Source of the DNA: an uncultured Desulfobacteraceae bacterium
Lineage (GTDB): Bacteria > Desulfobacterota > DSM-4660 > Desulfatiglandales > B25-G16
Direction of reading: 5' to 3'
Length of the DNA stretch: 64,000 nt
Assembly (NCBI GenBank): GCA_964611035.1
Contig: CAZSWT010000002.1
Coordinates: forward strand, 7,437 to 71,436
In this document: piece after piece, positions 4,608 to 59,906 of the stretch
Layout of the letters: the number at the start of each line of letters is the position of its first letter
Position numbering within the stretch: position 1 is the stretch's first letter
Notes under the pieces: model-generated
What the model was told of the DNA's origin: nothing
The model's input: only the letters and a program-made list of their open reading frames with translations
The model's database searches: none
Position numbers and translations under genes: made by a program

Positions 4608-4640
4608 CTTCAATGGACAATTATCAATTATCAATCATAA

Positions 4641-42965: not shown

Positions 42966-43247
42966 CAAGTATTTGCCCCTATACTGTCTGCTGAATTTAC
43001 CAGTTGTTTGCCAATTGTACCCTGAGGAAAACGGTCCCATTTTAAAACTACTCCCCATACAAAATCTGCTATTTCCTCTGCTAATTGATAAACACGAAGA
43101 TTTTCAAACCCTGTCCTCGCCATACCATTGTATCCTATCATATCTCGTTTCTAATTCAGCAACGGACAATTGACAATGATCGACTGACATTGTCTAAAAT
43201 AGACAAATTATAAAAATATCATTTAAAATTTTTTAGTATAGCACATT

Positions 43248-44681: not shown

Positions 44682-44917
44682 ATAAAACTCATACCTTATA
44701 TTCAATCCCTTAATAATATGATAACCGTTCACGGTTCACCGTTATCCGTTGTCCGAAAGGGGAGATATTCATCTGGATCAACCCATTGTTTGGGCTGTTG
44801 ATGGATTGTCTATTTAAGCGGTTCACTGCCACTGTTGGCTTATCGGTGAACGCTTACATAATACAATAAATAAATCCCAGCTTTGACGAGGTAAATTAAA
44901 TATAAGATTAAATCGTC

Positions 44918-45086
44918 ATAAATCAAGTTTCAAGTATCAAATATACATTGACCTGTGATAGTAAGTTTTATTAAAATTCTAAAATGGTCAGGGGGTTAAC
45001 AAGTAGCATTACTAAAATTTAAAGTTATAAGTAATCAAAGTCACAGAATATCAAAATAAATCAAGTTTCAAGTTTCAAGTATCAAG
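44918..45086. repeat. direct repeats ATAAATCAAGTTTCAAGTATCAA flanking about 115 bp upstream of dgt
   Basis: Copies lie at 44918-44940 and 45056-45086 (the latter with one extra TTCAAG unit). An inverted related copy lies at 44641-44678, inside the tilS 5' end. Confidence 0.6.
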
Positions 45087-45094
45087 TCTCAGCA

Positions 45095-46264
45095 ATGAAT
45101 AAGGCCAAAATCTTAAAAGATATTAAACAACAACTCCGTCTTTTAGAAAAGGATAGGCTTTCTCCTTATGCTACCTTGAGCACTCAGGCTGTCAGACGAA
45201 GAGAGGAGCCAGAGATTGTTGACAGCCACAGGGAGGATTTTTCGATTGATGCAGATAGGATTCTCCATTCTTTAGCCTATTCCCGATACATTGATAAGAC
45301 CCAGGTTTTCTATCTTATAAAAAATGATCACATTACCCATCGCGTCCTTCATGTGCAATTAGTCTCCAAGATTGGCAGAACGATAGGCCGTCTTTTACGA
45401 CTTAATGAGGATCTTATCGAGGCTATTGCTCTTGGCCACGATATAGGTCATACACCGTTTGGCCACGATGGTGAGAGGTTCCTTTCAGATTTATCTCAAA
45501 AATATGGGCTGGGTAATTTTTTACACAACGTACAAGGTGTGCGTTTTTTAGAGGCAATAGAAAGGAAGGGAGTTGGTTGGAACTTATCTCTTCAGGTTTT
45601 GGATGGCATCCTTTGTCATAATGGCGAGGTGCATAATCCTGCCTTATATCCTGATAAAGATAAAGATTTTACTCGATTGGAAGAAGATATAAAAAAGGTA
45701 ATAGAGGATCCAAATGCACCTATCTGGCCTATGACAATAGAGGGATGCACCGTGAGGATGGCAGATACCATTAGTTATATAGGGAGAGATATAGAGGATG
45801 CAATCAGACTGGGTTTGATAAAAAGGAATGAAATGCCGCCGGATTGTCGCCGTATATTGGGAGAAACAAATGGAACTATTGTATATACCCTGGTTGAGGA
45901 TTTAATAGCGGAAAGCCTGGAGAAACCCTCTCTCTCATTTAGCCCTGAGGTTGCACACGCCTTAAAAAGGCTTAAAGATTTCAACCAAGAGTTTATATAT
46001 ACCAATCCCAAGACGAAAAGCCAAACCGATAAGTTACTATTGATGTTTGAGATGCTTTTTAATAAATATTATAATGATCTAAAAGCAGGTAATGATAATT
46101 CAGTTATTTTTAAAGAATTTTTAGATGGGATGTCCTCTCAGTATAGAGATACTACACCTCTTGCCATGATTGTCCGGGATTTTATCTCTGGAATGACAGA
46201 TGATTATTTTTTACGCCAATGCCAGGAGAACCTCATGCCCCAGATATTATCAGGGCATTATTGA
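45095..46264 (+). CDS. dgt: dGTP triphosphohydrolase-like HD protein
   Basis: DFSIDADRILHSLAYSRYIDKTQVF, THRVLHVQLVS and GHDIGHTPFGHDGE. Confidence 0.85.
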   Translation: MNKAKILKDIKQQLRLLEKDRLSPYATLSTQAVRRREEPEIVDSHREDFSIDADRILHSLAYSRYIDKTQVFYLIKNDHITHRVLHVQLVSKIGRTIGRLLRLNEDLIEAIALGHDIGHTPFGHDGERFLSDLSQKYGLGNFLHNVQGVRFLEAIERKGVGWNLSLQVLDGILCHNGEVHNPALYPDKDKDFTRLEEDIKKVIEDPNAPIWPMTIEGCTVRMADTISYIGRDIEDAIRLGLIKRNEMPPDCRRILGETNGTIVYTLVEDLIAESLEKPSLSFSPEVAHALKRLKDFNQEFIYTNPKTKSQTDKLLLMFEMLFNKYYNDLKAGNDNSVIFKEFLDGMSSQYRDTTPLAMIVRDFISGMTDDYFLRQCQENLMPQILSGHY

Positions 46265-46324
46265 AACATTTTGGAATTTCTACAACCTATTGCATAGATC
46301 TCTTAGTTTCAATGGATTTATACT

Positions 46325-46487
46325 CCAATTGTAACTTCTCTATAAGTCCGGGTAATTCCTTGCCAATGCCATTTGCCGTCATTGCGAGGAGCGGAGCGAC
46401 GTGGCAATCTCATTGCTATAATAGAGATTGCTTCGCTTTGCTCGCAATGACAGAACCCGAACTTATTGAGAAGTTACCTCCAATTGG
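46325..46487. repeat. nested palindromes: outer IR enclosing a gene-less GTCATTGCGAG hairpin (46378-46451)
   Basis: Outer arm CCAATTGTAACTTCTCTATAAGTCCGGGT pairs with the reverse complement of ACCCGAACTTATTGAGAAGTTACCTCCAATTGG. Inner element: GTCATTGCGAGGAGCGGAGCGACGTGGCAATCT-loop-AGATTGCTTCGCTTTGCTCGCAATGAC. Confidence 0.7.
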
Positions 46488-46590
46488 GGCGAATGCCCCA
46501 AACTCATAGCTAAATAATAGCTATTTTTAAGCTACATTGTAACTACTTGTTACTGTTACAATTTTCTCAAATATTTTTTTCAAAAACTTG

Positions 46591-46852: not shown

Positions 46853-47674
46853 ATGAACACCGCAGGTGAAGCAAAAGAAGGGGATGTTCTCCTAAAACTC
46901 GAAAATATTCATATGGCCTTTGGAAAGGTAGCTGCCTTGAATGGTGTTGACTTAGAGGTAAAAAAGGGAGAGATACATTCTATTATTGGGCCAAATGGTG
47001 CTGGCAAAACAGTGATGATGAACTGTATTAATGGCCTTTATCGCCCCCAGCAGGGAAATATTTTTTTTAAGGGACAGAAAATTAATAATCTTGCTCCTCA
47101 TAAGATTGCTGCTCTTGGAATCGGCAGGACCTTCCAGAAGCTTGAGCTGTATGGTGGAATGACCGTTACTGAAAATATCAGGATGGGCTCCCACATACAT
47201 CTCAAAAGTAATATCCTGAGTGGCTCTATTTATGTCGGTAATCCAAAAAGAGAAGAGATAGAAGACCGAAAATTTATCGAGGAGGAAATCATCGATTTGT
47301 TAGAGATCGAGTCTATCCGTGATCAGGTTGCACACATGCTTCCTTATGGCTCACAGAAGAGAGTTGAGCTCGGAAGGGCCCTGGCGCTCAGGCCAGAGGT
47401 TATCCTTTTGGATGAACCCATGGCAGGCTTGAACTTAGAAGAAGTTGAAGACATGGCCAGGTTTATTCTCGACATAAACGAAGAGAAACGCTGGAAGATA
47501 ACCTGTGTATTAGTAGAGCACGATATGGGTGTGGTAATGGATATCTCCCACAGGGTTCTTGTCCTTGATTTCGGCAATATGGTCACTGATGGAACCCCGG
47601 ATGAGGTTGGCAAAAACCCCCAGGTTGTTAAGGCATATTTAGGTGAAGAGGATCTTTACGTAACAAGGAGATAA
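46853..47674 (+). CDS. livG: Liv-type ABC transporter ATP-binding protein
   Basis: Walker A GPNGAGKT, signature-like YGSQKRVELGRAL, Walker B ILLDEPMAGL, and the VEHDM motif typical of LivG. Confidence 0.85.
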   Translation: MNTAGEAKEGDVLLKLENIHMAFGKVAALNGVDLEVKKGEIHSIIGPNGAGKTVMMNCINGLYRPQQGNIFFKGQKINNLAPHKIAALGIGRTFQKLELYGGMTVTENIRMGSHIHLKSNILSGSIYVGNPKREEIEDRKFIEEEIIDLLEIESIRDQVAHMLPYGSQKRVELGRALALRPEVILLDEPMAGLNLEEVEDMARFILDINEEKRWKITCVLVEHDMGVVMDISHRVLVLDFGNMVTDGTPDEVGKNPQVVKAYLGEEDLYVTRR

Positions 47675-47675
47675 A

Positions 47676-49595
47676 ATGGCAGAAAAGATAGAGGTAACAA
47701 AAGACCTCACTATCCCACAAGTATTTTTAAAAAGATGCAAAGAATATGGAGCTGGAAAAGTTGCCATGAGAGAGAAGGAGTTTGGGTTATGGCTGCCTTA
47801 CACATGGCAGGACTACTATGATAGGGTAAAATATCTATGCCTGGGAATGGTCAGCCTTGGACTAAAGAGAGGGGACAAGGTGGCCATGATTGGTGATAAC
47901 AGGCCGGAAGGTGTCTGGGCAGAGATGGCTGCTATGTGTGCTGGAGGCATACCGGTCTGGCTCTTTCAGGATTGTATGATGGATGAGGTCAAATATATAA
48001 TAGATCATTCAGATAGCAAATTCTTGGTAGGAGAAACTCAGGAGGAGGTTGATAAGGCATTAGCCATTATGCCTGATTGCCCAAAATTAGAATACGTAAT
48101 ATGGGATGACCCAAAGGGGATGAGGCGCTACCATCAGCCAAATTTAAAAAGCATAATAAAGACCCAGGAGCTTGGCAAGGAGCTTGATGAGAAGGAACCG
48201 GATCTATTTGAAAAAATGATTAATGAAGGCAATGGTCAAGAAATCTGTCTCCTGTTTTATACATCCGGCACAACTGCCCTCCCTAAAGGCGCCCTTCTAA
48301 CCCATTACAATATGCTGAGCATGGGTAAAAATCTCATGGCAGTTGACCCATGTTATGACACCGATGACTTTGTATCCTATCTTCCCTTTGCCTGGATCGG
48401 GGAGCAGATGATGTCCATATCCTGCGGCCTCCTGATGGGCTACACACTTAATTTCCCGGAGGAACCGGAAACATCCCAGCATAATATTCGAGAGATCGGG
48501 CCTCATGTAATGTTTGCTGCGCCACGGCTTTATGAGGGCCTGACCCGTCAGGTCCAGGTAAAATATCTGGATTCCACCTGGATAAAGAGAAAGGCATATG
48601 AAATAGCTACAAAGATAGGGTATCATGTAGCGGATCTAAAGTTTGAAAAGAAGCCTATTCCATGGTACTGGAACGCCCTGAATTACTTCGCTTATGCCAC
48701 CATGCAGAAGAAGCTCAAGGATCACCTTGGAATGTCGCGACTCCGACATTGTTATACGGGCGGCGCTGCAATGGGGCCTGAGCATTTTCGCTTTTTCCAT
48801 GCCCTGGGTGTAAACTTAAAACAAATATATGGCCAAACAGAGGTAGCTGGAATATCCGTTACACACAGGGATGGGGATATAAAATTTGACACGGTTGGAA
48901 CTCCTATTCCTGAAACGGAGGTGAATATCACAGAGGATGGAGAGATCATCTCCAAAAGCCCATCAGTATTTCAGGGTTACTATAAAAATGATGAAGAAAC
49001 AAAAAAGACATTAACGGATGGATGGCTTCACTCCAGTGATACCGGTTTTATCGACGATGATGGTCATTTAGTTGTCTTTGACAGGACAAAAGATGTTTTG
49101 AAACTGAATGATGGCAGGCCCTTTGCCCCCCAATATCTCGAGGCCAGGCTTAAATTCAGTCCCTATGTACAGGATGCCTGGGTTATCGGGGATAAATTAC
49201 CCTTTGTAACTGCTGTTATGTGTATTGATTATTCCGTTGTTGGCAAATGGGCAGATGAGCATAAGATTAACTATACAAGTTATCCGGAACTTTCCCAGGA
49301 CCCAAGGGTCTATGACCTTGTTCAGAAACAGATAGAAGAGGCCAATAAAGCGCTTCCTGAACCGGCCAGGATAAACAAATTTGTTAACCTCTACAAGGCA
49401 TTTGATGCAGATGATGAAGAATTGACCAGGACCAGCAAACTAAGGAGGGGTTTTATGGAACAGCGTTACAAGGATATTGTAGAGACCCTTTATAAGGATG
49501 CAGACACGGTCCACCTGGATATGACAATCACCTATGAGGATGGAAGGGAACAGCCTATAAAGACAGATCTGCGTATTCAAGAGATAAAGGCTTGA
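47676..49595 (+). CDS. AMP-forming acyl-CoA ligase (long-chain fatty-acid-CoA-ligase-like, 639 aa)
   Basis: LFYTSGTTALPKGA, YGQTE and HSSDTGFIDDDGHLVVFDRTKD. The start is 1 nt after the ATPase stop. Confidence 0.8.
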   Translation: MAEKIEVTKDLTIPQVFLKRCKEYGAGKVAMREKEFGLWLPYTWQDYYDRVKYLCLGMVSLGLKRGDKVAMIGDNRPEGVWAEMAAMCAGGIPVWLFQDCMMDEVKYIIDHSDSKFLVGETQEEVDKALAIMPDCPKLEYVIWDDPKGMRRYHQPNLKSIIKTQELGKELDEKEPDLFEKMINEGNGQEICLLFYTSGTTALPKGALLTHYNMLSMGKNLMAVDPCYDTDDFVSYLPFAWIGEQMMSISCGLLMGYTLNFPEEPETSQHNIREIGPHVMFAAPRLYEGLTRQVQVKYLDSTWIKRKAYEIATKIGYHVADLKFEKKPIPWYWNALNYFAYATMQKKLKDHLGMSRLRHCYTGGAAMGPEHFRFFHALGVNLKQIYGQTEVAGISVTHRDGDIKFDTVGTPIPETEVNITEDGEIISKSPSVFQGYYKNDEETKKTLTDGWLHSSDTGFIDDDGHLVVFDRTKDVLKLNDGRPFAPQYLEARLKFSPYVQDAWVIGDKLPFVTAVMCIDYSVVGKWADEHKINYTSYPELSQDPRVYDLVQKQIEEANKALPEPARINKFVNLYKAFDADDEELTRTSKLRRGFMEQRYKDIVETLYKDADTVHLDMTITYEDGREQPIKTDLRIQEIKA

Positions 49596-49648
49596 AGAGG
49601 AAGCAGTGGGCAATAAAGGGAAGGTATAAGGACTTTGACTTATAAATA

Positions 49649-50091
49649 CTAAACTCTAAATCCGAAATAATAAACAAATCCAAAGGACCAAAATTAAAAA
49701 TTCAAAACAGTATGATTTAGAAGACAGGACTTTAAAGTTTACAAAGGAGGTAATAGAGTTTGTTAAAAATCTACCAAGGACTATAGCTAATATTGAGATA
49801 ATAAAACAACTTGTCCGAGCTTCTGGTTCTGTGGGAGCAAATTATATCGAAGCGAATGAGGCCTTAAGTAAAAAAGATTTTGCCATGCGCATCAAGATTT
49901 GCCGAAAAGAAGCTAAAGAAAGCAGATATTGGCTGAGACTTATTGAAGTAAATGGGCCGGATGCTGAAAAACAAAGGAAATTATTGATTCAGGAGGCAAC
50001 TGAACTTATGAAAATCTTTGGCTCCATTCTGGAGAAGACAAAATAAGTTTTGATATTATGATTTTGTATTTTGAAATTGTTTAGAGTTTAG
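49649..50091 (+). mobile_element. IR-bounded four-helix-bundle gene cassette in the ligase-livH spacer
   Basis: CTAAACTCTAAA 49649-49660 pairs with TTTAGAGTTTAG 50080-50091 (perfect 12 nt). An inner pair TCAAAAC 49702-49708 / GTTTTGA 50047-50053 lies at the gene edges. Confidence 0.55.
49693..50046 (+). CDS. four-helix-bundle protein (23S rRNA IVS protein / Avd family); no canonical start codon for the full-length frame
   Basis: The frame is open from 49660: ...YDLEDRTLKFTKEVIEFVKNLPRTIANIEIIKQLVRASGSVGANYIEANEALSKKDFAMRIKICRKEAKESRYWLRLI... The only ATG/GTG/TTG is GTG 49831, in the middle of the fold. ATT 49693 lies 5 nt after AAGGA. Confidence 0.55.
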   Translation: MKNSKQYDLEDRTLKFTKEVIEFVKNLPRTIANIEIIKQLVRASGSVGANYIEANEALSKKDFAMRIKICRKEAKESRYWLRLIEVNGPDAEKQRKLLIQEATELMKIFGSILEKTK

Positions 50092-50164
50092 AAATTAGGA
50101 TTTAGGATTTTTCATACTTTACTGCGCGCATTACTTCTTACTAAACAAAAGGGGGTAGAAGAGA

Positions 50165-51049
50165 ATGGAATTATTTTTAATGACCTTTACTACCGGGATT
50201 ATGGTTGGAGGGATATATGCCTTAGTTGCACTTGGTTGGGTTCTGATATACAAATGTTCCGGTGTACTGAACCTGGCCATGGGTGAGCTGACCCTTATAG
50301 GGGCCTATGTCACAATTTATTTTTATTTAATGGGCGTTCCCTTCATTTTATGCATCTTGTTTACCCTGATCATTGGTATTATCCTCGGTATTTTAGTGGA
50401 ACGGATTTTCTTAGACAGGCTTATCGGAGAGCCGATCCTGGCCGTTATAATGGTAACCGTGGGTCTCTCTTTTTTCCTTAAAGGATTGGTTGGGTTTGTA
50501 TGGGGAGTAGATACCAGGGTCTTCACGCCAGCTATCTTTTCCCTTAAGCCATTTACCATCGGTTTTTTGAAGATCTCAACTGTCTATTTCTGGTCCTTTG
50601 TGCTGGCCATTGTTCTCTTTCTCGTTTTTGTTGCCTTTTTTAAATATACACGCTGGGGTCTTTCCATGCAGGCAACAGCAGACGATGAGACAGCCGCCCT
50701 ATCCCTTGGAGTAAGTGCCAGGTTTGTATATGCAGCATCCTGGGCTATTGCCTTTATGGCAGCGGGCGTTGGAGGAGCACTTTTAGGAAATATAAATGGT
50801 GTTAACATTACTATTGGCTTTTTAGGGTTATTGGTATTGCCCGCCGTGGTCCTCGGCGGCCTTAACTCCATTCCCGGGGCCATAGTAGGAGGACTATTAA
50901 TAGGAGTTTTGCAGAATTTTGCCGGCACTTACTTAGATCAGTATTTCCCCGGAGGGGTAAAAGAAGTCTTTCCCTTTGCATTTATGGCAGTATTTTTACT
51001 CTTCATGCCATATGGGCTCTGGGGTTGGATAAAGATAGAGAGGATGTAA
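50165..51049 (+). CDS. livH: Liv-type ABC transporter permease
   Basis: Polytopic membrane protein of the LivH/BPD family pattern (GELTLIGAY...; ...GGLNSIPGAIVGGLLIG). Confidence 0.85.
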   Translation: MELFLMTFTTGIMVGGIYALVALGWVLIYKCSGVLNLAMGELTLIGAYVTIYFYLMGVPFILCILFTLIIGIILGILVERIFLDRLIGEPILAVIMVTVGLSFFLKGLVGFVWGVDTRVFTPAIFSLKPFTIGFLKISTVYFWSFVLAIVLFLVFVAFFKYTRWGLSMQATADDETAALSLGVSARFVYAASWAIAFMAAGVGGALLGNINGVNITIGFLGLLVLPAVVLGGLNSIPGAIVGGLLIGVLQNFAGTYLDQYFPGGVKEVFPFAFMAVFLLFMPYGLWGWIKIERM

Positions 51050-51078
51050 ATTAGCAATGTAAAATTAGCAATTTAAAA

Positions 51079-51282
51079 ATGATATGGAGTTAGACGGAGG
51101 AGAGAAGAAGACCGGAGATGATATATAAAGAATGTAATCTAACAATGTAAAATTATCAATATAAAATTAGCAAGTTAAAAATGATATGGAGTTAGACGGA
51201 GGAGAGAAGAAGACCGGAGATGATATATAAAGAATGTAATCTAACAATGTAAAATTATCAATATAAAATTAGCAAGTTAAAA
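51079..51282 (+). repeat. two identical 102-bp tandem units (cassette arm plus a truncated 14-codon 5' end of the four-helix gene)
   Basis: 51079-51180 equals 51181-51282 base for base. A diverged third copy from 51283 runs into the intact gene. Confidence 0.9.
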
Positions 51283-51287
51283 ATGAT

Positions 51288-51665
51288 ATGGAGTTAGATG
51301 CAGGGGAGAAGAAGACTGGAGATAATATAGCAGAACGTTTACTTGATTTTGCCGTAAGAGTTATAAAACTTGTCAATGCGCTACCGAAAACAATTGTTGG
51401 GAGACATATAGCAGGCCAGCTTGTTAGGTCGGGAACATCTTGTGGATCTAATTATGAAGAATCTCGTGGGGCTGAATCCAGGGCAGATTTTATTCACAAA
51501 TTAGGTATTGCTTTAAAAGAGATTAAAGAATCACGTTTTTGGTTGAAAGTCATTTACCATGCTAAAATTATGAAGCCAGAACAAATTGAATCACTCATTG
51601 TAGAATGCGGGGAATTAGCTGCCATAATTGCAAAAAGCATAATTACAGCGAAAGCAAATAAATAA
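51288..51665 (+). CDS. four-helix-bundle protein (23S rRNA IVS protein / Avd family)
   Basis: MELDAGEKKTGDNIAERLLDFAVRVIKLVNALPKT...GQLVRSGTSCGSNYEESRGAESRADFIHKLGIALKEIKESRFWLKVI. Confidence 0.8.
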   Translation: MELDAGEKKTGDNIAERLLDFAVRVIKLVNALPKTIVGRHIAGQLVRSGTSCGSNYEESRGAESRADFIHKLGIALKEIKESRFWLKVIYHAKIMKPEQIESLIVECGELAAIIAKSIITAKANK

Positions 51666-51735
51666 TTTTCCAAATATTAATTTTTAATTGCTAATTGCTA
51701 ATTTTATATTTTAACTTGAATTAAGGAGATAATCT

Positions 51736-52833
51736 ATGTCAAGAGTTTGGCTTCCGTGCGGCTATTATCATGAAAACTATGCAAAGGATCAGGGTTGGTG
51801 GCAGACACCTGTGATAAAGGGGAAGATGATTTTACTTCTCCTGATTGTTTTTGTTGGATTTCCCTTATTTTTAGACGAATACTGGATCGGTGTGGCTAAC
51901 ATGATTGGCTACACTGCACTTGGTGCCCTTGGCGTACAGCTTTTGATAGGTTATGCAGGTTTGATAACCCTGGGACATGCCGCCTTTATAGCTGTAGGTG
52001 CCTATACAAGTACCATTTTAATCCTGCAATTTCCATGGCCAGAATTTTTAATTAACTGGGGCCTTGCATATCCCATCAGCATTGTAGTTGCTGCAATTGT
52101 TGCCGGCCTGTGGAGTGTTCTCTTTGGGCTTCCTTCTGCCAGGGTCAAGGGATTTTACCTTATTTTAACTACCATGGCCGCCCAGTTTATCACAGTGGAC
52201 TTTATCCTGACCCAGTATGTAAGCCGAATTGGCGGCAGAGGACAGGCATTTTCCCTTCCACCAGGCACAATTAAGATAGGTCCCTGGGTTATAGATACGG
52301 ATTTGAAGGTATATTTTTTAATGATTATCGTTTTGACCCTTACGGTTATGATTATGGCAAATCTCCTCAGAACCAGGGTTGGAAGGGCCTGGGTTGCAAT
52401 AAGGGACAATGATATTGCAGCAGAGACCCTTGGCATTAATATTATCTGGTATAAATTGCTGAATTTCTTTGTGGCAGGATGTATAGCCGGTGTTGCAGGG
52501 GCGTTTTGGGTGGCCAACTTAGCGGCCCTGAGCCCGGAGCATTTTCCATGGTTCTGGTCTCTTTGGCTGGTAGGTGTAATACTAATCGGCGGGGCAGGGA
52601 TTGATGGCGCCATTTTTGGCTCTATATTTATGGTTATGGTCTTAGAAATTTTGCAGATGTTAGCTATGCCAGCTTCTGAAATATTTCCAAAGATCCTGAT
52701 TGATTTTGCCTTTTTAAAGGATATGGCCTTTGGCCTTGCAATATGTGCCTTCTTGATCTATGAGCCTCGAGGACTTTCTTATAGATGGTGGCAGGCCAAA
52801 AATTATTTTAACCTGTGGCCGTTTTCGTATTAA
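51736..52833 (+). CDS. livM: Liv-type ABC transporter permease
   Basis: Polytopic membrane protein with LLIGYAGLITLGHAAF and RVGRAWVAIRDNDIAAETLGIN, typical of LivM. SD AAGGAG. Confidence 0.85.
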   Translation: MSRVWLPCGYYHENYAKDQGWWQTPVIKGKMILLLLIVFVGFPLFLDEYWIGVANMIGYTALGALGVQLLIGYAGLITLGHAAFIAVGAYTSTILILQFPWPEFLINWGLAYPISIVVAAIVAGLWSVLFGLPSARVKGFYLILTTMAAQFITVDFILTQYVSRIGGRGQAFSLPPGTIKIGPWVIDTDLKVYFLMIIVLTLTVMIMANLLRTRVGRAWVAIRDNDIAAETLGINIIWYKLLNFFVAGCIAGVAGAFWVANLAALSPEHFPWFWSLWLVGVILIGGAGIDGAIFGSIFMVMVLEILQMLAMPASEIFPKILIDFAFLKDMAFGLAICAFLIYEPRGLSYRWWQAKNYFNLWPFSY

Positions 52834-52864
52834 TGAAGCTATTGCAAAATATGCTTGAGAAAAT

Positions 52865-52990
52865 GTCATTGGGAGAAGAGATATTCTTATTTAGTCATTG
52901 CGAGGAGCGGGCTTTGGCACTTGGTCATTGCGAGGAGTGGATATTCTCATTTGGTCATTGCGAGGAGGCCAGAGGCCGACGAAGCAATCT
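52865..52990 (+). repeat. tandem array (period 29-30 bp, four units) of the GTCATTG(C/G)GAGGAG left palindrome arm
   Basis: Units start at 52865 (degenerate), 52894, 52924 and 52954. Only the last continues into ...CCGACGAAGCAATCT. Confidence 0.75.
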
Positions 52991-53345
52991 TGGAAGTTCC
53001 GCAATCTTAAAAAAGTATAAATGAAGAGACAGTATTATGTCTATATATTGACCAACAAACATAATACCGTTCTCTACACAGGTATAACAAACGATCTGAA
53101 AAGAAGAGTTTACGAACATAAAGAAAAACTTGTTGATGGGTTTACAAAGAAATACAACATTACAAAATTGGTATACTATGAAGTTTTCGAAGACCCTGAA
53201 AATGCCATATTGAGAGAGAAACAGATAAAGGCTGGTTCAAGGCAAAAGAAAATCGACCTGATTAACAGCATAAATAGAGAATGGATTAATTTGTATGAGA
53301 AAATATGAGATTGCTTCGTCCCGATGAATCGGGACTCGCAATGAC
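52954..53345 (+). mobile_element. GIY-YIG gene carried in the loop of a GTCATTGCGAG...CGAAGCAATCT palindrome
   Basis: The left arm is GTCATTGCGAGGAGGCCAGAGGCCGACGAAGCAATCT (52954-52990). The right arm is AGATTGCTTCGTCCCGATGAATCGGGACTCGCAATGAC (53308-53345) and overlaps the stop codon. Confidence 0.55.
53021..53308 (+). CDS. GIY-YIG nuclease-domain protein (95 aa)
   Basis: YYVYILTNKHNTVLYTGITNDLKRRVYEHK...YYEVFEDPENAILREKQIK. Confidence 0.85.
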   Translation: MKRQYYVYILTNKHNTVLYTGITNDLKRRVYEHKEKLVDGFTKKYNITKLVYYEVFEDPENAILREKQIKAGSRQKKIDLINSINREWINLYEKI

Positions 53346-53356
53346 GAAGTGTCAAT

Positions 53357-53398
53357 GTCATTGCGAGCGAATTTACGAAACGTTTTAATAGCAATGAC
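53357..53398. repeat. short gene-less GTCATTGCGAG...GCAATGAC hairpin
   Basis: GTCATTGCGAGCGAATTTACGAAACGTTTTAATAGCAATGAC. Confidence 0.55.
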
Positions 53399-53430
53399 TT
53401 TTTATTTTTTATCAGGTATACTTGATAAAT

Positions 53431-53568
53431 TCGTAAAAAGTCAAAAATGGGATGGCAAAGTAAAAAGTTCCAAATGCAAGGCTTGCGAATCTTGAGGAAT
53501 GAGGCGTACTTACCAGTACGCGCAATGACAAAAGATGAAGCGTAACGTAGCAGTTGGACTTTTTACGA
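53431..53568. repeat. MITE-like palindromic element (CGTAAAAAGTC family)
   Basis: Arms are TCGTAAAAAGTC (53431) and GACTTTTTACGA (53558-53568). Confidence 0.6.
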
Positions 53569-53590
53569 AGTCGTCATACGTGATTCATTC

Positions 53591-53730
53591 CTAAAAAGTC
53601 ATGAACCGGGGTCATTGCGAGGAGCATAGCGACGAAGCAATCTAATAAATACAATAAGTTATGCTATATGAGATTGCTTCGTCCCGATGAATCGGGACTC
53701 GCAATGACATGCTTTTTGACTTTTTACGAG
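53591..53730. repeat. CTAAAAAGTCA...TGACTTTTTACGAG element enclosing a gene-less GTCATTGCGAG palindrome (53611-53708)
   Basis: Inner element: GTCATTGCGAGGAGCATAGCGACGAAGCAATCT, a 27-nt loop, then AGATTGCTTCGTCCCGATGAATCGGGACTCGCAATGAC. The right arm is identical to that of the GIY-YIG cassette. Confidence 0.7.
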
Positions 53731-53832
53731 ATATTTATATAACAGTTGAAAGGAGGTGAATTACAGGGATAATATAACAATTATTGTTTAGGCGGGTTTA
53801 ATTTTTATTTATCTTTTAAAAAGGGGGAAGCA

Positions 53833-55113
53833 ATGAAGATGAAAAAGATTTTAATTGTTTTATGTGCCGTTGTATTTTTGTTTGGCCTATCATCTATGGC
53901 TTTAGCCAAGGTGATAAAGGTAGGTGGCATTAAGGATACAACAGGTGCTACGTCTGATGTGGGAAAAGACGCCGCACTCGGTCAGGAAGAATTCTGGGCG
54001 CACTATGTAAACGATCATGGTGGCATTAATGGAAAGAAAGTAAAATATATCTGGTTTGACTATGGTTACCGAATCCCTGAGGCCCTTACCAAATATAAGC
54101 TCCTTAAAAGGATGAAAGTTCTCGCTATCATGGGATGGGGAACAGGTGATACCGAGGCCCTTTCACCGACTATCAATAGGGATAAGATTCCCTATGTATC
54201 GGATTCCTACTCTGCTCACCTCACACGGCCAAAAGACTGGGTAGGAAAGGATGGAAAAAAACATGGGGGCACAGCCTATAACCTGTTTTTTTCATCCGAT
54301 TACTCCACCAATGCCAGATCCTGTTTGACAGCCTGGTATGACAAGAAATGGAAACCAAGGGGAGAGAGCAGGAAGCCCCGTCTTGCATGTTGCTATATGT
54401 TTGGCTCTCCGTATGCAAGCGCCCCTATTGCTGCTATCAAGAACCATGCTGAGCTGCTCGGTTTTGATATAGGCAAGGATCAGGATGTGAGTCTATTTGC
54501 CATTGATACCAAGAGCCAGATCATGGCGCTTCAAAAGTTTAAGCCGGATATCATCTGGCACGGAAACACAACTATGTCGGTGTCTGCCACCATAAGGGAT
54601 GCATATGCCCTGGGGTTACGGGCGGATCATATCGTTAACAACTGGGGTTTTGATGAAAACCTACCGCGCCTTGCCGGAGAGGCTATGAATGCAAAGGATG
54701 CACTGTGTGTAATGGGTGCAACTCCTAATGGTTTTTATGGACAAAAATGCGACTTGATGGATGAGGTGGTAAAGTATGCCAAGAAAATCAATCCTGGTGT
54801 CCCTCAGAAAAAGCGTATATGCAGAACTGTTCAGGGTTGGTCCAATGGCCTTGTCCTCTGGGAAGCGATGAAACGGGCAGATAAGGCAGGCGATCTAACC
54901 GGCCCAGGAATTATGAAAAAGGGCTTTGAAACCATGCGGGATTTCCATATCGGTTTATGTACTGGTAATGTTACCTATACAGCCAATGACCATAGGCCAA
55001 CAGGAGGTTGCTGGGTTCAGGAATGGAAAGACGGCAAGTTTCAGAAGGTGGACTTTGTTAATGTGAAAGAGCGGTGGCCAAAACAATGGGCCTCTGAATG
55101 GCACGGATGGTAA
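53833..55113 (+). CDS. ABC transporter periplasmic substrate-binding protein (LivK/Peripla_BP_6-like)
   Basis: Signal peptide MKMKKILIVLCAVVFLFGLSSMALA. About 400-aa periplasmic protein encoded between the permease and ATPase genes. Confidence 0.8.
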   Translation: MKMKKILIVLCAVVFLFGLSSMALAKVIKVGGIKDTTGATSDVGKDAALGQEEFWAHYVNDHGGINGKKVKYIWFDYGYRIPEALTKYKLLKRMKVLAIMGWGTGDTEALSPTINRDKIPYVSDSYSAHLTRPKDWVGKDGKKHGGTAYNLFFSSDYSTNARSCLTAWYDKKWKPRGESRKPRLACCYMFGSPYASAPIAAIKNHAELLGFDIGKDQDVSLFAIDTKSQIMALQKFKPDIIWHGNTTMSVSATIRDAYALGLRADHIVNNWGFDENLPRLAGEAMNAKDALCVMGATPNGFYGQKCDLMDEVVKYAKKINPGVPQKKRICRTVQGWSNGLVLWEAMKRADKAGDLTGPGIMKKGFETMRDFHIGLCTGNVTYTANDHRPTGGCWVQEWKDGKFQKVDFVNVKERWPKQWASEWHGW

Positions 55114-55129
55114 ACAAGGAGGTTTCCAA

Positions 55130-55939
55130 TTGGAAGCAGCAGAAAAGATATTAATGGTAAATAATATTGAGGTCAAATACCATGAGGTGATCCTTGTGCT
55201 CAAGGGTGTCTCTATTGAAATCCCAAGAGGTGGTATAGTTGCCCTCTTGGGTGCCAACGGAGCAGGTAAAAGCACAACCCTGAAATCCATTTCCGGACTC
55301 CTTAAGGTGGAGGTTGGAGAGGTTACTGATGGGGCCATTGAGTTTGAAGGTGTGCGGATACACAAAAAAACTGCGGTAGAGATTGCCAAGATGGGTATTA
55401 TACAGGTAATTGAAGGCCGCAGGGTATTTGAGCATCTCACCGTTGAGGAGAACCTCAAGGTTGGGGCGCATTTGAGAAAGTCAGGGTCTGTCAAGGATGG
55501 ATTGGAGCTGGTCTACCACTATTTTCCCAGGCTAAGGGAAAAGAGGAGTGAAGTTGCAGGATTTGTGAGCGGAGGAGAGCAGCAGATGGCGGTAGTCGGC
55601 AGGGCCCTGATGACAGAGCCCAAGCTGGTACTATTAGATGAGCCATCTATGGGACTTGCCCCTATGTTAATCCATGAGATATTCAATATCTTAACGAGGC
55701 TTAACAAGGACGAACACATATCTATTCTTCTGGTTGAGCAAAATGTAAAGCTGGCCCTGAATGTGGCCCCATACGCATATGTAATGGAAACCGGGCGTAT
55801 TGTCATGGATGATACGTCTGAAAGATTAAAAGAAAATGAAGATATTAAGGATTTTTATCTCGGGCTCTCTGAAAAAGGAAAGTCAAAGAGCTTCGCAGAG
55901 GTAAAACACTATAAGAGAAGAAAAAGATGGCTAACGTAG
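55130..55939 (+). CDS. livF: Liv-type ABC transporter ATP-binding protein
   Basis: GANGAGKST, SGGEQQMAVVGRAL and LVLLDEPSMGLAP. TTG start lies 7 nt after AAGGAGG. Confidence 0.85.
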   Translation: MEAAEKILMVNNIEVKYHEVILVLKGVSIEIPRGGIVALLGANGAGKSTTLKSISGLLKVEVGEVTDGAIEFEGVRIHKKTAVEIAKMGIIQVIEGRRVFEHLTVEENLKVGAHLRKSGSVKDGLELVYHYFPRLREKRSEVAGFVSGGEQQMAVVGRALMTEPKLVLLDEPSMGLAPMLIHEIFNILTRLNKDEHISILLVEQNVKLALNVAPYAYVMETGRIVMDDTSERLKENEDIKDFYLGLSEKGKSKSFAEVKHYKRRKRWLT

Positions 55940-55969
55940 CCCTAAAATTTAAATAGGGAGGTTTTTATT

Positions 55970-56569
55970 ATGCCTAAGAAATCTACAGTATTATTAATCG
56001 CGCTTATTTTTGGTATGGGGGTGCTATTTGCCTCTTGTGCCGCTGTTCAGGTAAAACCTACTGCGGCCAATTTTAAGGCACCAACAATAGCAATCGAAAT
56101 GATAGAGGTACCCCAGTATGATGGGTACTGGTATTATGGGGGAAATATAAAACCAACAAAAGGTAAGGCAGGGAATCATGGTGCACCCTTGCCATTAATC
56201 ATTACCTTTAATATCACGAATCCAAATCCATATCCGATTCTACTGGAGGATTACAGTTTTGTCATTGCATTTGAAGACTTTGATATGACTACTGTCAAAG
56301 GCTATGAGTCCCAGTGGATTCCGGCTGGTAAGACAAATCAAGTCAAGGCAGCCACCATGTTTACCACTCGTTCAGTATTATTGAAGCTTTTGGTAACCAG
56401 TGGATTCAAATTAAAGGCCAAAGGAACCAATGCCTGGGCCGCAATGGAAAAATATTGGACTACAATTCCTGATATGGCCTTTCCCATTAACATTTATGAA
56501 GGGAATTTCGGCTTTAGGGCCGATGGTGTCTCTAAGGCAGTTCCATTTAAAGGCACTTATGCCCCATAA
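55970..56569 (+). CDS. lipoprotein, possibly LEA14/LEA_2-like fold (hypothetical)
   Basis: The lipobox LFASC is present. ITFNITNPNPYPILLEDYSFVIAF resembles the LEA_2 NPN...l..l.y.l pattern; this is a weak assignment. Confidence 0.5.
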   Translation: MPKKSTVLLIALIFGMGVLFASCAAVQVKPTAANFKAPTIAIEMIEVPQYDGYWYYGGNIKPTKGKAGNHGAPLPLIITFNITNPNPYPILLEDYSFVIAFEDFDMTTVKGYESQWIPAGKTNQVKAATMFTTRSVLLKLLVTSGFKLKAKGTNAWAAMEKYWTTIPDMAFPINIYEGNFGFRADGVSKAVPFKGTYAP

Positions 56570-56606
56570 TTGGGGATGAACAGATGGGTTTAATCATCTA
56601 AAAAAA

Positions 56607-56643
56607 ATAGACCGCCAGAGGTGCTGCCTTTGGCGGTCTATTT
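56607..56643 (+). terminator. 15-bp-stem hairpin between the lipoprotein gene and the second ligase gene
   Basis: ATAGACCGCCAGAGG-TGCTG-CCTTTGGCGGTCTAT followed by TT. The U-tract is weak, so it could be an RNA-processing or stability element rather than a full terminator. Confidence 0.45.
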
Positions 56644-56680
56644 ACTTATCGATAGCATATTGATTTGAAAGAGGTAAGCT

Positions 56681-58204
56681 ATGGGTTTATATGATTTTAC
56701 TATTTATGATGTTATAAACCGGAATGCCAGGTGTTTTAAACAGAGGCCAGCCTGGTTAGAGTTATCTGATGGCCGGGAAATAACATTCGGCGAGTTAAAG
56801 GATATGGTTGATCATCTGGCCAAAGGCCTGCAAGATGTGGGATTGAAGAAAGGTGATCGGATTGGAATATTAGGCAAAAACAGTCTTGAATACTTTCTAC
56901 TTTATGGTGCGGCTTCTGCATTAGGGCTAATTGTTATTGCTATAAACTGGCGTTTGTCAGCCGATGAGGTGGAAAATAACCTGGCTGATGGAGCGCCACG
57001 ATTGGTCTTTGCTGATTCCGAGTTCCAGGAGTTGATCCAGGGGCTAAAGGATAAACTAACATCTGTGGAGACATATTATAACTTGAGTGGAAAAGAAGGC
57101 TCTTTTGAAGATTTCAATCGATTGCTTGATAATAATGCAGATTTTAAATTAGAAGAGGTAGCTACAGATGACGGCACTGTTATAATCCATACAGCAGCAG
57201 TAGAAGGTAAGCCAAGGGGCGCACTTGTGACCCATCGCAATATTCTCTCTGCAACCACACAGTTTGCTCATGTATTCAAGATATATAAAGAAGATGTTCA
57301 CCTCAATCTTCTTCCACTCTTCCATGTAGGGGGTCTGTTTATCGCTATGACCGCATTTCATGCAGGGGCCCTGAATATTAATGTGAGTAGATTTGACGCA
57401 GACCAGGCCGTGGATTTTATTCAGGAAAAAAAGATTACCATGCTATTTGACTTTGCCCCGATACTGGCCTCAATCCTTGACAGCCAAGAAAAGAGCGGGA
57501 AAGATATCAGCTCTTTAAGACTGGTGGCTGGTCTTGACAGTCCTGAGACCATAGAAAGGTATCAAAAGGCAACAGGCGGAGAGTTTTTTGTGGTTTATGG
57601 TCAGACAGAGGTTTCAGCATTGGTAACTATTTCACCATACAATGAAAAACCTGGATCTGCTGGAAGACCTTTGCCCCTTGCTGATGTACGACTTTTTGAT
57701 GACTATGATAAAGAGGTTGAAACTGGCAAGGTAGGTGAGATTGTGGTGAGGGGGCCTATGGTTTTTAAGGGTTACTGGAATCTACCTGAGGAAACATCCT
57801 ACACATTTAGGGAGGGTTGGCATCATACGGGAGACCAGGGACGTTTTGACGAGGAAGGCTTTCTTTGGTATGCTGGACGCAAAGCAGAAAAAGAGCTTAT
57901 TAAGCCGGGAGGGGAAAATGTTTACCCAGCTGAGGTAGAAAAGGTGATCCTCCAGCATCCTGCAGTTGAGAGAACCGTTGTTTTTGGAGTGCCTGATCCT
58001 AAATGGAAAGAAGGAATCAAGGCAGTATGTGAGTTGAAAGAAGGGCAGAGCCTTGAACCACAGGAGCTTATAGATTTTGTTGGTGAACGTATTGCCAGAT
58101 TCAAGAAACCTCAATATGTGGAATTTATCACGGATATTCCCCTTCTTGAGGATGGCTCTCCGGACAGGGCCAAGGCTAAGGAATTGTATGGGGGAGAGCA
58201 ATAA
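56681..58204 (+). CDS. AMP-forming acyl-CoA ligase (507 aa)
   Basis: VYGQTE, GWHHTGDQGRFDEEGFLWYAGRK, GENVYPAEVE and a C-terminal FKKPQYVEF. Confidence 0.85.
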   Translation: MGLYDFTIYDVINRNARCFKQRPAWLELSDGREITFGELKDMVDHLAKGLQDVGLKKGDRIGILGKNSLEYFLLYGAASALGLIVIAINWRLSADEVENNLADGAPRLVFADSEFQELIQGLKDKLTSVETYYNLSGKEGSFEDFNRLLDNNADFKLEEVATDDGTVIIHTAAVEGKPRGALVTHRNILSATTQFAHVFKIYKEDVHLNLLPLFHVGGLFIAMTAFHAGALNINVSRFDADQAVDFIQEKKITMLFDFAPILASILDSQEKSGKDISSLRLVAGLDSPETIERYQKATGGEFFVVYGQTEVSALVTISPYNEKPGSAGRPLPLADVRLFDDYDKEVETGKVGEIVVRGPMVFKGYWNLPEETSYTFREGWHHTGDQGRFDEEGFLWYAGRKAEKELIKPGGENVYPAEVEKVILQHPAVERTVVFGVPDPKWKEGIKAVCELKEGQSLEPQELIDFVGERIARFKKPQYVEFITDIPLLEDGSPDRAKAKELYGGEQ

Positions 58205-58270
58205 GCGTAACTTCTTAATATTTCAGAGAACACTTGGCAGTAAAATAAATATGACTAACTGATGTATATT

Positions 58271-58327
58271 GTAGGGGTTCGATTTATCGAACCCTTGCGT
58301 ATCGGGCTTGATAAATCAAGCCCCTAC
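58271..58327. repeat. double-hairpin-within-a-stem element
   Basis: GTAGGGG[TTCGATTTATCGAA]CCC-TTGCGTATC-GGG[CTTGATAAATCAAG]CCCCTAC. Confidence 0.6.
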
Positions 58328-58387
58328 AAAAAAACCCCAAAATATTGAGAAGATACCAATAAACTGATTAAAAAAATGAAAATCAAA

Positions 58388-58416
58388 AGCTCTACTTAAA
58401 ACGTAGGGCTTTTTTG
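58388..58416. terminator. bidirectional rho-independent terminator between convergent genes
   Basis: AGCTCTAC-TTAAAAC-GTAGGGCT is followed by TTTTTTG on the plus strand. An A-run upstream gives a U-tract on the minus strand. Confidence 0.6.
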
Positions 58417-59643: not shown

Positions 59644-59906
59644 GCCATCAGTTTCTAATAGACCGTTGACATTTAGCCGTTATCTTTGTGTATTTAAGGT
59701 GGTTACCTTCTTGACATCTTGTAAGGCAGGTGATATTTTTCGCAGAACTTTTTGGTGGCTAATGTTCATTGTGTTCATTGTGTTTGTTGTGTTTATTTTA
59801 AACTGTAGCTGATTTTAGTCACTTTAACTCGCAACCAGTAATTAGACAATTGACAATGAACAACGGACAACTGTCAACGGACAACAAACAAAGAGAAAGG
59901 ATTTCT

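Follow-up and report, generated by a model that had tools for sequence, protein, structure and literature searches.

Hairpin-bounded small-gene cassettes resembling rRNA intervening sequences in the spacers of a transport operon from an uncultured Desulfobacteraceae bacterium

Intervening sequences (IVSs) were first recognised in bacterial rRNA about 1990, and both their origin and the role of the open reading frames (ORFs) within them are still debated. Here we describe small-gene cassettes of similar architecture in a 64,000-nucleotide stretch of DNA (hereafter the window) from contig CAZSWT010000002.1 of an uncultured Desulfobacteraceae bacterium (assembly GCA_964611035.1). The cassettes are situated in three oversized spacers of a transport operon and in the spacer between tilS and ftsH. 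As we understand them, each is composed of a small ORF, coding for either a PF05635 four-helix-bundle (FHB) protein or a GIY-YIG protein that consists of the catalytic domain only, placed between two complementary arms that belong to the element itself. The conclusion put forward here, to which we assign a probability of roughly 0.55, is that these spacers hold hairpin-loop gene cassettes of the rRNA-IVS type, mobile or formerly mobile at the level of DNA, which ride on host transcription.

Insertions other than introns in the rRNA of candidate phyla radiation bacteria encode PF05635 or GIY-YIG proteins. The 23S IVS of Coxiella has a 28-bp terminal stem and an S23p ORF; its excision by RNase III has been demonstrated in vitro, and it is cut at the first of two to three tandem heptamers (GACAGAT), the number of which varies among strains (PMC4990558). 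With the 23S IVSs of Leptospira, Coxiella, Brucella and Xanthomonas, the cassettes share the PF05635 family and a long terminal stem that encloses one small ORF, as well as tandem heptamers of variable copy number (in Coxiella at the 5′ end), dependence on host transcription and a patchy distribution that suggests horizontal transfer (PMC4990558). The first-pass annotation of this DNA had drawn attention to the stem around an ORF, and the likeness extends to arms of tandem heptamers, as in Coxiella. There are also clear differences. The 23S IVSs sit in helix 25 or 45 of 23S rRNA, whereas the cassettes lie in the intercistronic spacers of mRNAs; the ORF of Coxiella shows decay and is, it seems, not translated, whereas the FHB ORFs of this study are under purifying selection; and excision by RNase III has been shown for 23S IVSs, whereas for the cassettes it is plausible by analogy. 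By location, therefore, the cassettes are not rRNA IVSs, but they share all of the structural features that were tested.

Several other described systems resemble the cassettes in part. In REPtrons, too, a single gene lies between inverted hairpin-forming repeats in intergenic DNA, with gene-less copies elsewhere. REPtrons, however, encode HUH/Y1 transposases (PF01797), whereas the proteins of the window cassettes belong to PF05635 or PF01541, and PF01797 was found only in two relatives (L074, L085). In addition, the repetitive extragenic palindromes (REPs) of RAYTs are GTAG-tagged, whereas the FHB arms are heptamer arrays and several different cassettes occur per genome region. Integron cassettes, too, are co-oriented single ORFs, promoterless as those of the window may be, and their boundary is an imperfect palindrome that functions when a single strand folds, but attC is present only at the 3′ end, whereas the cassettes have arms on both sides; integron cassettes are also stacked beside an integrase and attI, whereas those described here are scattered among operon genes, with neither seen, although no integrase search was made. 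The free-standing GIY-YIG homing genes of the T4 Seg type are inserted between genes and spread laterally; in contrast to these, the two GIY-YIG proteins of the window (84–95 amino acids) are without a DNA-binding domain and are accompanied by hairpin arms. The short tandemly repeated repetitive (STRR) sequences of cyanobacteria are intergenic tandem heptamer repeats. The intergenic TAACTGA heptamers of Beggiatoaceae, Cyanobacteria and Bacteroidetes are patchy in distribution and oriented to the downstream gene, and have been reported with ‘no mechanism evident’ (PMC4679880). Such repeats share with the cassette arms a period of 7, a variable copy number and an almost exclusively intergenic location, but they have been described as direct repeats, without a partner array or a link to PF05635, whereas here they form inverted pairs around a gene, or remnants of these. 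Correia repeat enclosed elements (CREE), enterobacterial repetitive intergenic consensus sequences and bacterial interspersed mosaic elements (BIMEs) are inverted repeats in co-transcribed spacers that fold in mRNA and resemble the gene-less hairpins described below; they carry no ORF, and the cassettes are their gene-bearing counterpart. RNase III is able to cleave CREE or to protect it, which shows that hairpins resembling miniature inverted-repeat transposable elements can become substrates of this enzyme when they lie in mRNAs (PMC2649163). Finally, Avd, the accessory protein of diversity-generating retroelements, is a pentameric four-helix bundle of PF05635-like type with nucleic-acid-binding activity (PMC10053308), but no reverse transcriptase or template repeat is present near the FHB genes. 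Searches with the family accessions, with the arm sequences and for GIY-YIG together with REP or miniature inverted-repeat transposable elements returned no description of the cassette architecture outside rRNA, subscription journals lying outside their coverage.

A single co-oriented gene string at 46853–58204 constitutes a liv-like ABC-transporter/acyl-CoA-ligase operon of the Desulfatiglandales type, and Pfam and NCBIfam profiles bore out the gene order that had been proposed for it (Table 1). Its junctions measure, in order, 1, 569, 686, 999, 16, 30 and 111 nt, in agreement with the first-pass annotation, which had singled out the three large ones. Profile matches identified the two FHB genes (FHB1, FHB2) and the GIY-YIG gene (GIY1) that had been assigned to these spacers, every arm sequence quoted for them was located at its position, and the co-orientation claimed for five cassette genes and their neighbours holds for all five in the window. 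The minus strand carries a fourth cassette between tilS and ftsH; it is of the FHB type (FHB3) and is interrupted by a second GIY-YIG cassette (GIY2). In all, three different FHBs and two GIY-YIGs are found within 11 kb, with different arms on each. An assembly artefact was considered and rejected, because the arrangement recurs in five independent metagenome contigs.

Table 1. Operon genes, spacers and cassette features, given as positions in the window
Feature	Position	Strand	Evidence or remark
LivG-like ATPase	46853–47674	+	Pfam/NCBIfam
AMP-ligase (lig1)	47676–49595	+	Pfam/NCBIfam
Spacer 1 (lig1–livH), filled by FHB1 cassette	49596–50164	+	569 nt; junction table
FHB1 outer 5′ arm, GAAGCAGTGGGCAAT	49600–49614	+	Degenerate AGTAAGC-type heptamers; alignment with L017 and L021, duplex, fold
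FHB1 inner 5′ arm	49649–49681	+	Heptamer-like units CTAAACT CTAAATC CGAAATA ATAAACA; quoted arm CTAAACTCTAAA at 49649
FHB1 gene	49693–50046	+	PF05635, 61.7 bits (cut-off 33.8); TIGR02436, 81.2 bits (cut-off 24)
FHB1 inner 3′ arm	50080–50110	+	Period-7 array TTTAGAG TTTAGAA ATTAGGA TTTAGGA TTT; quoted arm TTTAGAGTTTAG at 50080
FHB1 outer 3′ arm, ATTACTTCTTACT	50130–50142	+	Pairs with the outer 5′ arm; alignment, duplex, fold
LivH-like permease (livH)	50165–51049	+	Pfam/NCBIfam
102-nt tandem repeat	51044–51329	+	2.8 copies, 95 % identity; Tandem Repeats Finder score 509
Spacer 2 (livH–livM), filled by FHB2 cassette	51050–51735	+	686 nt; junction table
FHB2 5′ arm copies	51056–51071, 51158–51173, 51260–51275	+	Quoted arm AATATAAAATTAGCAA at 51158 and 51260
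FHB2 gene	51288–51665	+	PF05635/TIGR02436, 66.4/89.6 bits
FHB2 3′ arm	51684–51710	+	TTAATTG CTAATTG CTAATTT TATATT; quoted arm TTGCTAATTTTATATT at 51695
LivM-like permease (livM)	51736–52833	+	Pfam/NCBIfam
Spacer 3 (livM–binding protein)	52834–53832	+	999 nt; GIY1 cassette, gene-less copy and more palindromes
Three copies of GTCATTGCGAGGAG	52894–52990	+	30-nt spacing; the third copy (52954–52990) is the complete GIY1 5′ arm, quoted as GTCATTGCGAGG...CGAAGCAATCT
GIY1 gene	53021–53308	+	95 amino acids; GIY-YIG catalytic domain only (UPF0213/UvrC-N-like); PF01541, 65.5 bits (cut-off 22.6)
GIY1 3′ arm, quoted as AGATTGCTTCG...CTCGCAATGAC	53308–53345	+	Overlaps the stop codon; identical to the 38-nt 3′ arm (53671–53708) of the gene-less hairpin in spacer 3
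Gene-less GIY-type hairpin in spacer 3	53611–53708	+	Fold z = −5.4
Periplasmic binding protein	53833–55113	+	Pfam/NCBIfam
LivF-like ATPase	55130–55939	+	Pfam/NCBIfam
199-amino-acid ORF	55970–56569	+	Without Pfam match
Second AMP-dependent ligase	56681–58204	+	Pfam/NCBIfam
Gene-less GIY-type hairpin upstream of the operon	46378–46451	+	Fold z = −5.2
FHB3 cassette between tilS and ftsH	42432–43189	−	5′ arm 43189–43160, 3′ arm 42461–42432
FHB3 gene, in two pieces	43141–42970 and 42681–42465	−
GIY2 cassette	42682–42969	−	288 nt; ORF 42938–42684; PF01541, 44.4 bits; perfect 12-bp inverted repeat CCCTGTTAAATA (42965–42954) and TATTTAACAGGG (42698–42687)

A protein-guided scan, with one genome per species, recovered the same eight-gene operon from 80 species, in which the operon genes were placed by tblastn and each junction was measured. 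It is apparent that the three junctions are typically short: 10–120 nt for lig1–livH, 20–170 nt for livH–livM and 80–210 nt between livM and the binding-protein gene. The nearest relative, L006 (LivH 98 %, lig1 95 %), has junctions of 114, 52 and 182 nt and no cassette gene, and L007 (LivH 95 %), with a lig1–livH junction of 86 nt, contains none of the three cassettes. Homologous livH–livM junctions, when empty, are 17–52 nt long, and the final ~110 nt of spacer 3 are a native leader that is common to relatives. Most of the operon-bearing species are without any such gene. These short junctions, together with the cassette-free L006, support the earlier claim that the spacers contain insertions rather than fixed genes.

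Where the junctions of relatives are occupied, the occupants differ. Orthologues of FHB1 (83–88 % amino-acid identity) are present at the same junction in L017 and L021, and a different FHB subfamily is present at enlarged junctions in L008, L011, L020, L057 and L086. L016 has an internally deleted copy of a cassette; in L090 only the arms and the ends of the ORF remain, and in L024 only the 5′ arm. The type-B FHB of relatives matches PF05635 with 121.1 bits. In L074 and L085 the lig1–livH junction holds IS200-like Y1 transposases (RAYT, PF01797) between inverted GTAG-type REP arms. A RAYT-like gene (RAYT2) with REP arms is situated at the livM–binding-protein junction of L021; it is called RAYT-like from its motifs and REP arms, with no Pfam match at E ≤ 0.001. 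This patchy and heterogeneous occupancy fits insertion, replacement and decay rather than a fixed accessory gene.

The ‘empty’ junctions are occupied by gene-less heptamer hairpins or remnants, so that they differ from the window junctions minus the cassette. In the livH–livM junctions (38–52 nt) of L006, L007, L011, L014, L015, L018 and L021, a one-sided array of the 3′-arm type (ATTTTCA ATTTTCA ATTGTCA ATTTTCA) directly precedes the ribosome-binding site of livM; it is either a landing pad or what is left of a cassette that has been lost. Alignment of filled with empty junctions recovered no clean empty site for the FHB cassettes, because the spacers have been replaced and not merely interrupted. 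GIY2 is the sole insertion that could be mapped to the base.

Nested mobile elements occupy the tilS–ftsH region (42396–43247, minus strand). When its two pieces are rejoined, the FHB3 protein gives an end-to-end PF05635 match of 93.4 bits, and intact homologues are 93–96 % identical in amino acids to the protein thus reconstituted. The homologues P0241 and P0257 have arms as in the window and are found in two other genomic contexts; the intact FHB3 cassette, with the same arms and 93–95 % amino-acid identity, lies after a phosphoglucomutase gene in L183 and between the genes for GTP cyclohydrolase (GCHY-1) and purH in L184. Alignment with the intact genes of L183 and L184 places GIY2 inside FHB3, 7 nt of which (TCGCTGA) have been replaced.

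Other cassettes were also encountered in unrelated surroundings. FHB2-type genes that are 68–76 % identical occur in Candidatus Edwardsbacteria (L091), between radical-SAM and glycosyltransferase genes, and in WOR-3 (L092), between two sugar-nucleotide genes, with arms AAAATTAGCAA ... TTGCTAATTGCTAATTTT in both. GIY1-type genes of Desulfobacterales (L174, L177) have perfect arms of 26–27 bp, GTCATTGCGAGCGGAGCGAAGCAATCT / AGATTGCTTCGCTCCGCTCGCAATGAC, and a Planctomycetaceae contig with a GIY1-type gene has the 5′ arm of the window and a diverged 3′ side. Judged by these sequence comparisons, the arms belong to the element and travel with the gene across phyla and into unrelated contexts. The direct evidence, namely the nested insertion, the occurrence of the same cassette in three contexts and the gene-less remnants, points to mobility at the DNA level. 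Thus the unit of gene and arms is an element that is, or formerly was, mobile as DNA. Its landing sites are in intergenic DNA that is transcribed, frequently within the loop of a hairpin or cassette already present there, and its orientation is that of the neighbouring genes; it can decay by internal deletion to gene-less hairpins and heptamer arrays.

Arms were folded without the intervening gene, which was replaced by a GAAA loop, and were compared with dinucleotide shuffles. The z values obtained were −2.9 for FHB1, −3.7 for FHB2, −8.1 for GIY1 and −3.2 for FHB3. The complete spacer 3 gave z = −8.6. The long stems suggested by the first-pass annotation were therefore detected in spacer 3 and in the arms-only folds, but not in the whole of spacers 1 and 2, in the minimum-energy structures of which the arms nevertheless do pair. 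The stems are real, because the arms fold beyond dinucleotide shuffles and GTCATTGCGAG, the sequence of the GIY-type hairpins, exceeds expectation (11 occurrences in the window versus 0.56); the FHB cassettes have modest, AU-rich stems, which would have to close loops of 400–500 nt.

Each FHB arm is made up of 7-nt units in tandem, and the two arms of a cassette are inverted relative to each other; in relatives the arrays take the form (AGTAAGC/AGTAGGC)n ... (GCTTACT/GCCTACT)n with 4 to ~14 units. A metagenome survey with the alignment of the FHB2 subfamily only yielded 80 loci (L094–L173; 51–95 % identity), and visual inspection revealed inverted heptamer arrays around nearly all of them. Arm statistics were determined for the 72 loci having 100 nt on both sides. 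Self-identity at lags of 7 and 14 was 0.42 in both 100-nt flanks, versus ~0.26 at other lags and 0.23–0.24 within the ORF. Pairing energies were −49.8 kcal/mol with the locus’s own 3′ arm, −36.0 kcal/mol with that of another locus and −32.1 kcal/mol with a shuffled arm. In the 29 loci with clear arrays, the 5′ unit recurs in the 3′ arm as its reverse complement, at a distance of 0–1 in 19 of them. The distance between heptamer units grows with protein distance (Spearman 0.36), a correlation that would be expected from common descent of the whole cassette, with or without a protein that recognises the repeat. The earlier statement that arms differ from cassette to cassette applies between subfamilies; within a subfamily they are conserved, even across phyla. 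In the 80 metagenomic loci, crude ORF calls gave same-strand neighbours upstream in 49 of 60 cases and downstream in 55 of 64 (~85 %), and co-orientation holds in all operon cases examined.

At a looser threshold, the window contains seven period-7 arrays, versus 0.15 expected by shuffling, all of them in the ~18 % of the DNA that is non-coding; a strict-threshold census found three arrays only, because the units are degenerate. Away from the cassette-bearing spacers, gene-less period-7 arrays were observed at 4610–4662, 44636–44756, 45056–45094 and 59761–59891, and within the last of these 59761–59797 (TGTTCATTG-type) and 59845–59891 (GACAACG-type) form an inverted pair with a loop of ~45 nt.

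The FHB1 gene has no ATG, GTG or TTG for its first ~57 codons, none occurring before codon ~58 (49831). The part upstream of this first canonical start has a ratio of nonsynonymous to synonymous substitution (dN/dS) of 0.09–0.14 among three species, and translation is likely to start at a conserved AUU at 49693, which follows a Shine–Dalgarno-like AAAGGA motif by 5–6 nt. FHB2 is related to PDB 2RLD (E = 4.6e–19). The 102-nt repeat makes three copies of the FHB2 5′ arm and of the first 14 codons, and thereby two 14-codon mini-ORFs upstream of the true gene. The 686-nt junction, a size that includes this repeat, was found again in four independent metagenome contigs (L001–L004). The close relatives L095, L086 and L090 have a single copy of the unit, and L094 has a partial additional copy of the FHB2 start and 5′ arm upstream. 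The FHB2 3′-arm motif also borders FHB2-type genes in other phyla.

GIY1 has more than 8000 relatives and matches the structures PDB 1ZG2 (UPF0213; 1.5e–5) and 1YD6 (UvrC N-domain; 0.006). Its arms alone fold with −51 kcal/mol into a branched form that has an 11-bp outer stem, a ~14-bp inner stem and a small hairpin within each arm. Structure-specific GIY-YIG nucleases cut branched, junction-like structures, and the modelled shape of the arms may be relevant to such an enzyme. The loop of the gene-less hairpin in spacer 3 retains the final bases of a GIY-YIG ORF, and for that reason this hairpin is probably a deletion derivative of a cassette. The gene-less GTCATTGCGAG...CTCGCAATGAC hairpin upstream of the operon is nested within another, 23-nt inverted repeat (46331–46353 / 46455–46477); a 96-amino-acid ORF that spans it (46219–46509) has no Pfam match and is probably spurious. 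Gene-less GIY-type hairpins were also found in L009, L062 and L117. That of L009 (9080–9144) is at the livM–binding-protein junction, within the loop of a heptamer hairpin, and that of L062 (6816–6932) is at the lig1–livH junction; these operon junctions therefore draw the GIY-type element too.

Further repeats were observed in and near the same spacers. Members of a palindrome family, CGTAAAAAGTC / GACTTTTTACG, are situated at 53423–53447, 53554–53576 and 53713–53729, and include a perfect 17-nt inverted repeat (53431–53447 / 53713–53729); the family is also present at the livM–binding-protein junctions of L011 and L023, and in L176. REP-like repeats of the TCATTCCCGCGAAAGCGGGAATCC type occur in L066, L011 and L023. 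A REPIN-like doublet of GTAG-tagged palindromes, TTGTAGGGGTTCGATTTATCGAACCC / GGGCTTGATAAATCAAGCCCCTACAA, directly follows the last operon gene (58269–58329), and the same repeat type borders the RAYT-like gene of L021. An Rfam scan of the window returned one tRNA only and no rRNA, the spacers being without any Rfam family, and the PADLOC defence profiles gave no match at E ≤ 0.01 for four cassette proteins.

The values of dN/dS are 0.06–0.20 in FHB1, FHB2 and the type-B FHB (0.08–0.20 in FHB2). The coding sequences thus show that the FHB genes are under purifying selection and are kept intact, and the FHB proteins are therefore made and selected. Synonymous divergence (pS) between the window and its relatives is lower in the cassettes than in livH: 0.36 versus 0.66 for FHB2 compared with L086, 0.31 versus 0.73 for FHB2 compared with L090 and 0.28 versus 0.54 for FHB1 compared with L021. 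Overall, pS of FHB2 is 0.31–0.36, versus 0.66–0.82 for the adjacent livH. Nucleotide identity is 0.88–0.92 across the cassette, the non-coding inner arms included, versus 0.75–0.85 in the flanking genes, and it dips at the outer boundaries of the cassette. The cassettes are thus younger than the DNA around them, and the simplest reading of these sequence comparisons is that they have spread laterally into the same junction. Between phyla, the pS of FHB genes reaches saturation (0.65–0.8), and synonymous sites are therefore free to change.

How such a cassette might persist within an operon can be outlined. Its gene would be expressed through read-through from the host operon. Terminator-like sites are absent from the cassettes, the strong one at 58385–58413 being situated downstream of the last operon gene, and the arms end shortly before the downstream ribosome-binding sites. 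The first-pass annotation saw no promoters of the cassettes’ own; promoter-consensus matches number 46, modestly above the 30 ± 6 expected from shuffles in this AT-rich DNA, and such promoters may therefore be present or absent. The long terminal stem would make the insertion tolerable. It could be a substrate for RNase III-type cleavage, by which the polycistronic RNA would be freed of the cassette, as has been shown by experiment for the homologous 23S IVSs; alternatively, it could serve as a stable insulating hairpin. By analogy with those IVSs, RNase III-type processing of the transcript is plausible, and excision at the RNA level or segmentation of the operon, as had been proposed at the outset, would follow from the same analogy. 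With respect to movement, we can only speculate. The GIY-YIG nuclease may spread by cutting empty copies of its palindrome, which would be repaired from a filled copy. FHB cassettes encode no mobility enzyme, and movement of these would therefore need host or trans-acting functions, or recombination between repeat arrays.

A number of observations weigh against the conclusion stated above. No target-site duplication was detected at the GIY2 insertion, where 7 nt were replaced instead, and no duplication or other signature of transposition was found elsewhere. The complete spacers 1 and 2 fold no better than shuffles (z = −1.0 and +1.1), and the AU-rich FHB2 stem, with 16 perfect pairs only, would close a translated loop of ~420–520 nt. 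Before correction, G:U pairing makes the sense strand the more stable one in 50 of the 72 loci, and in 39 of the 57 that are non-redundant, but this excess vanishes after control for composition (p = 0.14, composition-matched shuffles); the asymmetry between G:U and A:C was rejected as a signature of RNA pairing, since composition-matched shuffles give the same bias. The low synonymous divergence of the cassettes could stem partly from constraint at the nucleotide level and not from recent transfer. FHB2 orthologues (83–90 % amino-acid identity) are found at the same livH–livM junction in two further Thermodesulfobacteriota. Lastly, 32 of the 80 FHB2-like loci are in the lig1–livH or livH–livM junctions of liv-type operons, in taxa that are ~70 % identical in LivH. 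Such recurrence reflects either a real preference or co-descent together with an FHB2-restricted query, and the apparent link to liv operons may be inflated because the survey was limited to the FHB2 subfamily.

The last of these points bears on the view that the FHBs are ordinary accessory genes, partners of liv-type or of any operons, with hairpins that arose in place as REP/BIME-like stabilisers or processing sites of the mRNA and with gene loss as the only cause of absence. Long co-descent or a function tied to the operon could account for the 32 loci, the purifying selection on FHBs is as this view would have it, and PF05635 genes within cas operons have been interpreted as functionally associated with them (PMC3936711), a finding that hitch-hiking cassettes account for more simply. 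The same FHB was indeed found at the same junction in L017 and L021 (FHB1) and in L086 and L090 (FHB2), a pattern that the first-pass annotation had regarded as indicating ordinary accessory genes. Occupancy is, however, patchy, most operon-bearing species having no such gene, and the cassettes have only about half the synonymous divergence of the adjacent livH. Moreover, the occupant of one and the same junction may be an FHB of another subfamily, a RAYT or a GIY-type palindrome, the same cassette with its arms recurs in unrelated operons and phyla, and FHB3 of the window was broken by GIY2 and not replaced. Accessory genes are accordingly considered an improbable explanation. Very improbable, in our judgement, is that the elements act purely at the RNA level, with the stem kept for segmentation of the mRNA or differential stability of its cistrons and the ORFs as incidental passengers, as has been proposed for the Coxiella IVS. 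There, the S23p ORF shows decay, and it is the RNA that was considered the relevant part (PMC4990558). RNase III binds or cuts the Correia elements of mRNAs in Neisseria (PMC2649163); gene-less hairpins also persist at the same junctions in many species. Yet the FHB ORFs, including FHB1 with its probable non-canonical start, are strongly purified by selection, the arms move with the genes between genomes, spacers 1 and 2 are not exceptionally structured, and there is no strand-specific pairing signal beyond composition.

The main rival to DNA-mobile cassettes of the IVS type is an explanation modelled on REPtrons, which is possible, if on the unlikely side. Here the gene would be the driver and not cargo, set between two copies of its own substrate, just as RAYT transposases are flanked by the REPs on which they act. 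The GTCATTGCGAG...CTCGCAATGAC palindromes would be the targets of the GIY-YIG nuclease, the heptamer arrays would be bound or maintained by the FHB pentamer, and the gene-less copies would be their dispersed clients. RAYTs with inverted GTAG-type REP arms do occupy the very same lig1–livH junction in L074 and L085, and a RAYT-like gene the livM–binding-protein junction of L021. On the other hand, RAYTs are typically single-copy and vertically inherited, in contrast to the three FHBs and two GIY-YIGs, with arms that are all different, in 11 kb of the window. The gene-less GIY-type hairpins of the window and of L009, L062 and L117, and the gene-less heptamer hairpins and arrays of ‘empty’ junctions and of the window, could well be clients, but several gene-less copies (those of L090, L016 and spacer 3) look like deletion derivatives that keep the ends of the ORF in the loop. 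Arm motifs are cognate to the gene subfamily, and the branched, junction-like fold modelled for the GIY1 arms would suit a structure-specific nuclease; however, a single FHB subfamily has widely differing heptamer units, an argument against tight recognition of sequence, and the correlation of unit with protein distance is expected from common descent alone. To our knowledge, furthermore, no catalytic activity of FHB proteins is known.

A broader proposal would have PF05635 genes with inverted heptamer arms constitute a widespread, undescribed class of mobile cassette, of which 23S IVSs are the copies that landed in rRNA and STRR and TAACTGA repeats the gene-less remnants. By binding its own array in the form of RNA or single-stranded DNA, the FHB pentamer would drive the element or protect it; cleavage of the stem by RNase III would let the host mRNAs survive the insertion; and small GIY-YIGs with palindromes would be a parallel, nuclease-driven and nesting version. 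Taken as a whole, this proposal is doubtful and is offered as tentative.

If DNA-mobile cassettes are indeed what the spacers contain, the transport operon tolerates ~2 kb of foreign DNA in its junctions. The combination of a small GIY-YIG nuclease and a conserved palindrome may be a new nuclease–repeat system analogous to RAYT–REP, and the cassettes are a possible source of the puzzling intergenic heptamer repeats of several phyla. Where a small PF05635 or GIY-YIG gene is lodged in an operon, cas operons among them, the assignment of functional partners through guilt by association would be unwarranted. The rRNA IVSs, finally, would be one special case of a broader family found mostly in mRNA spacers. 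If this type of element, its ORF intact and under selection, lives mainly in the mRNA spacers of many phyla, rRNA IVSs become a side branch, and the biology of IVSs would become testable on ordinary operons.

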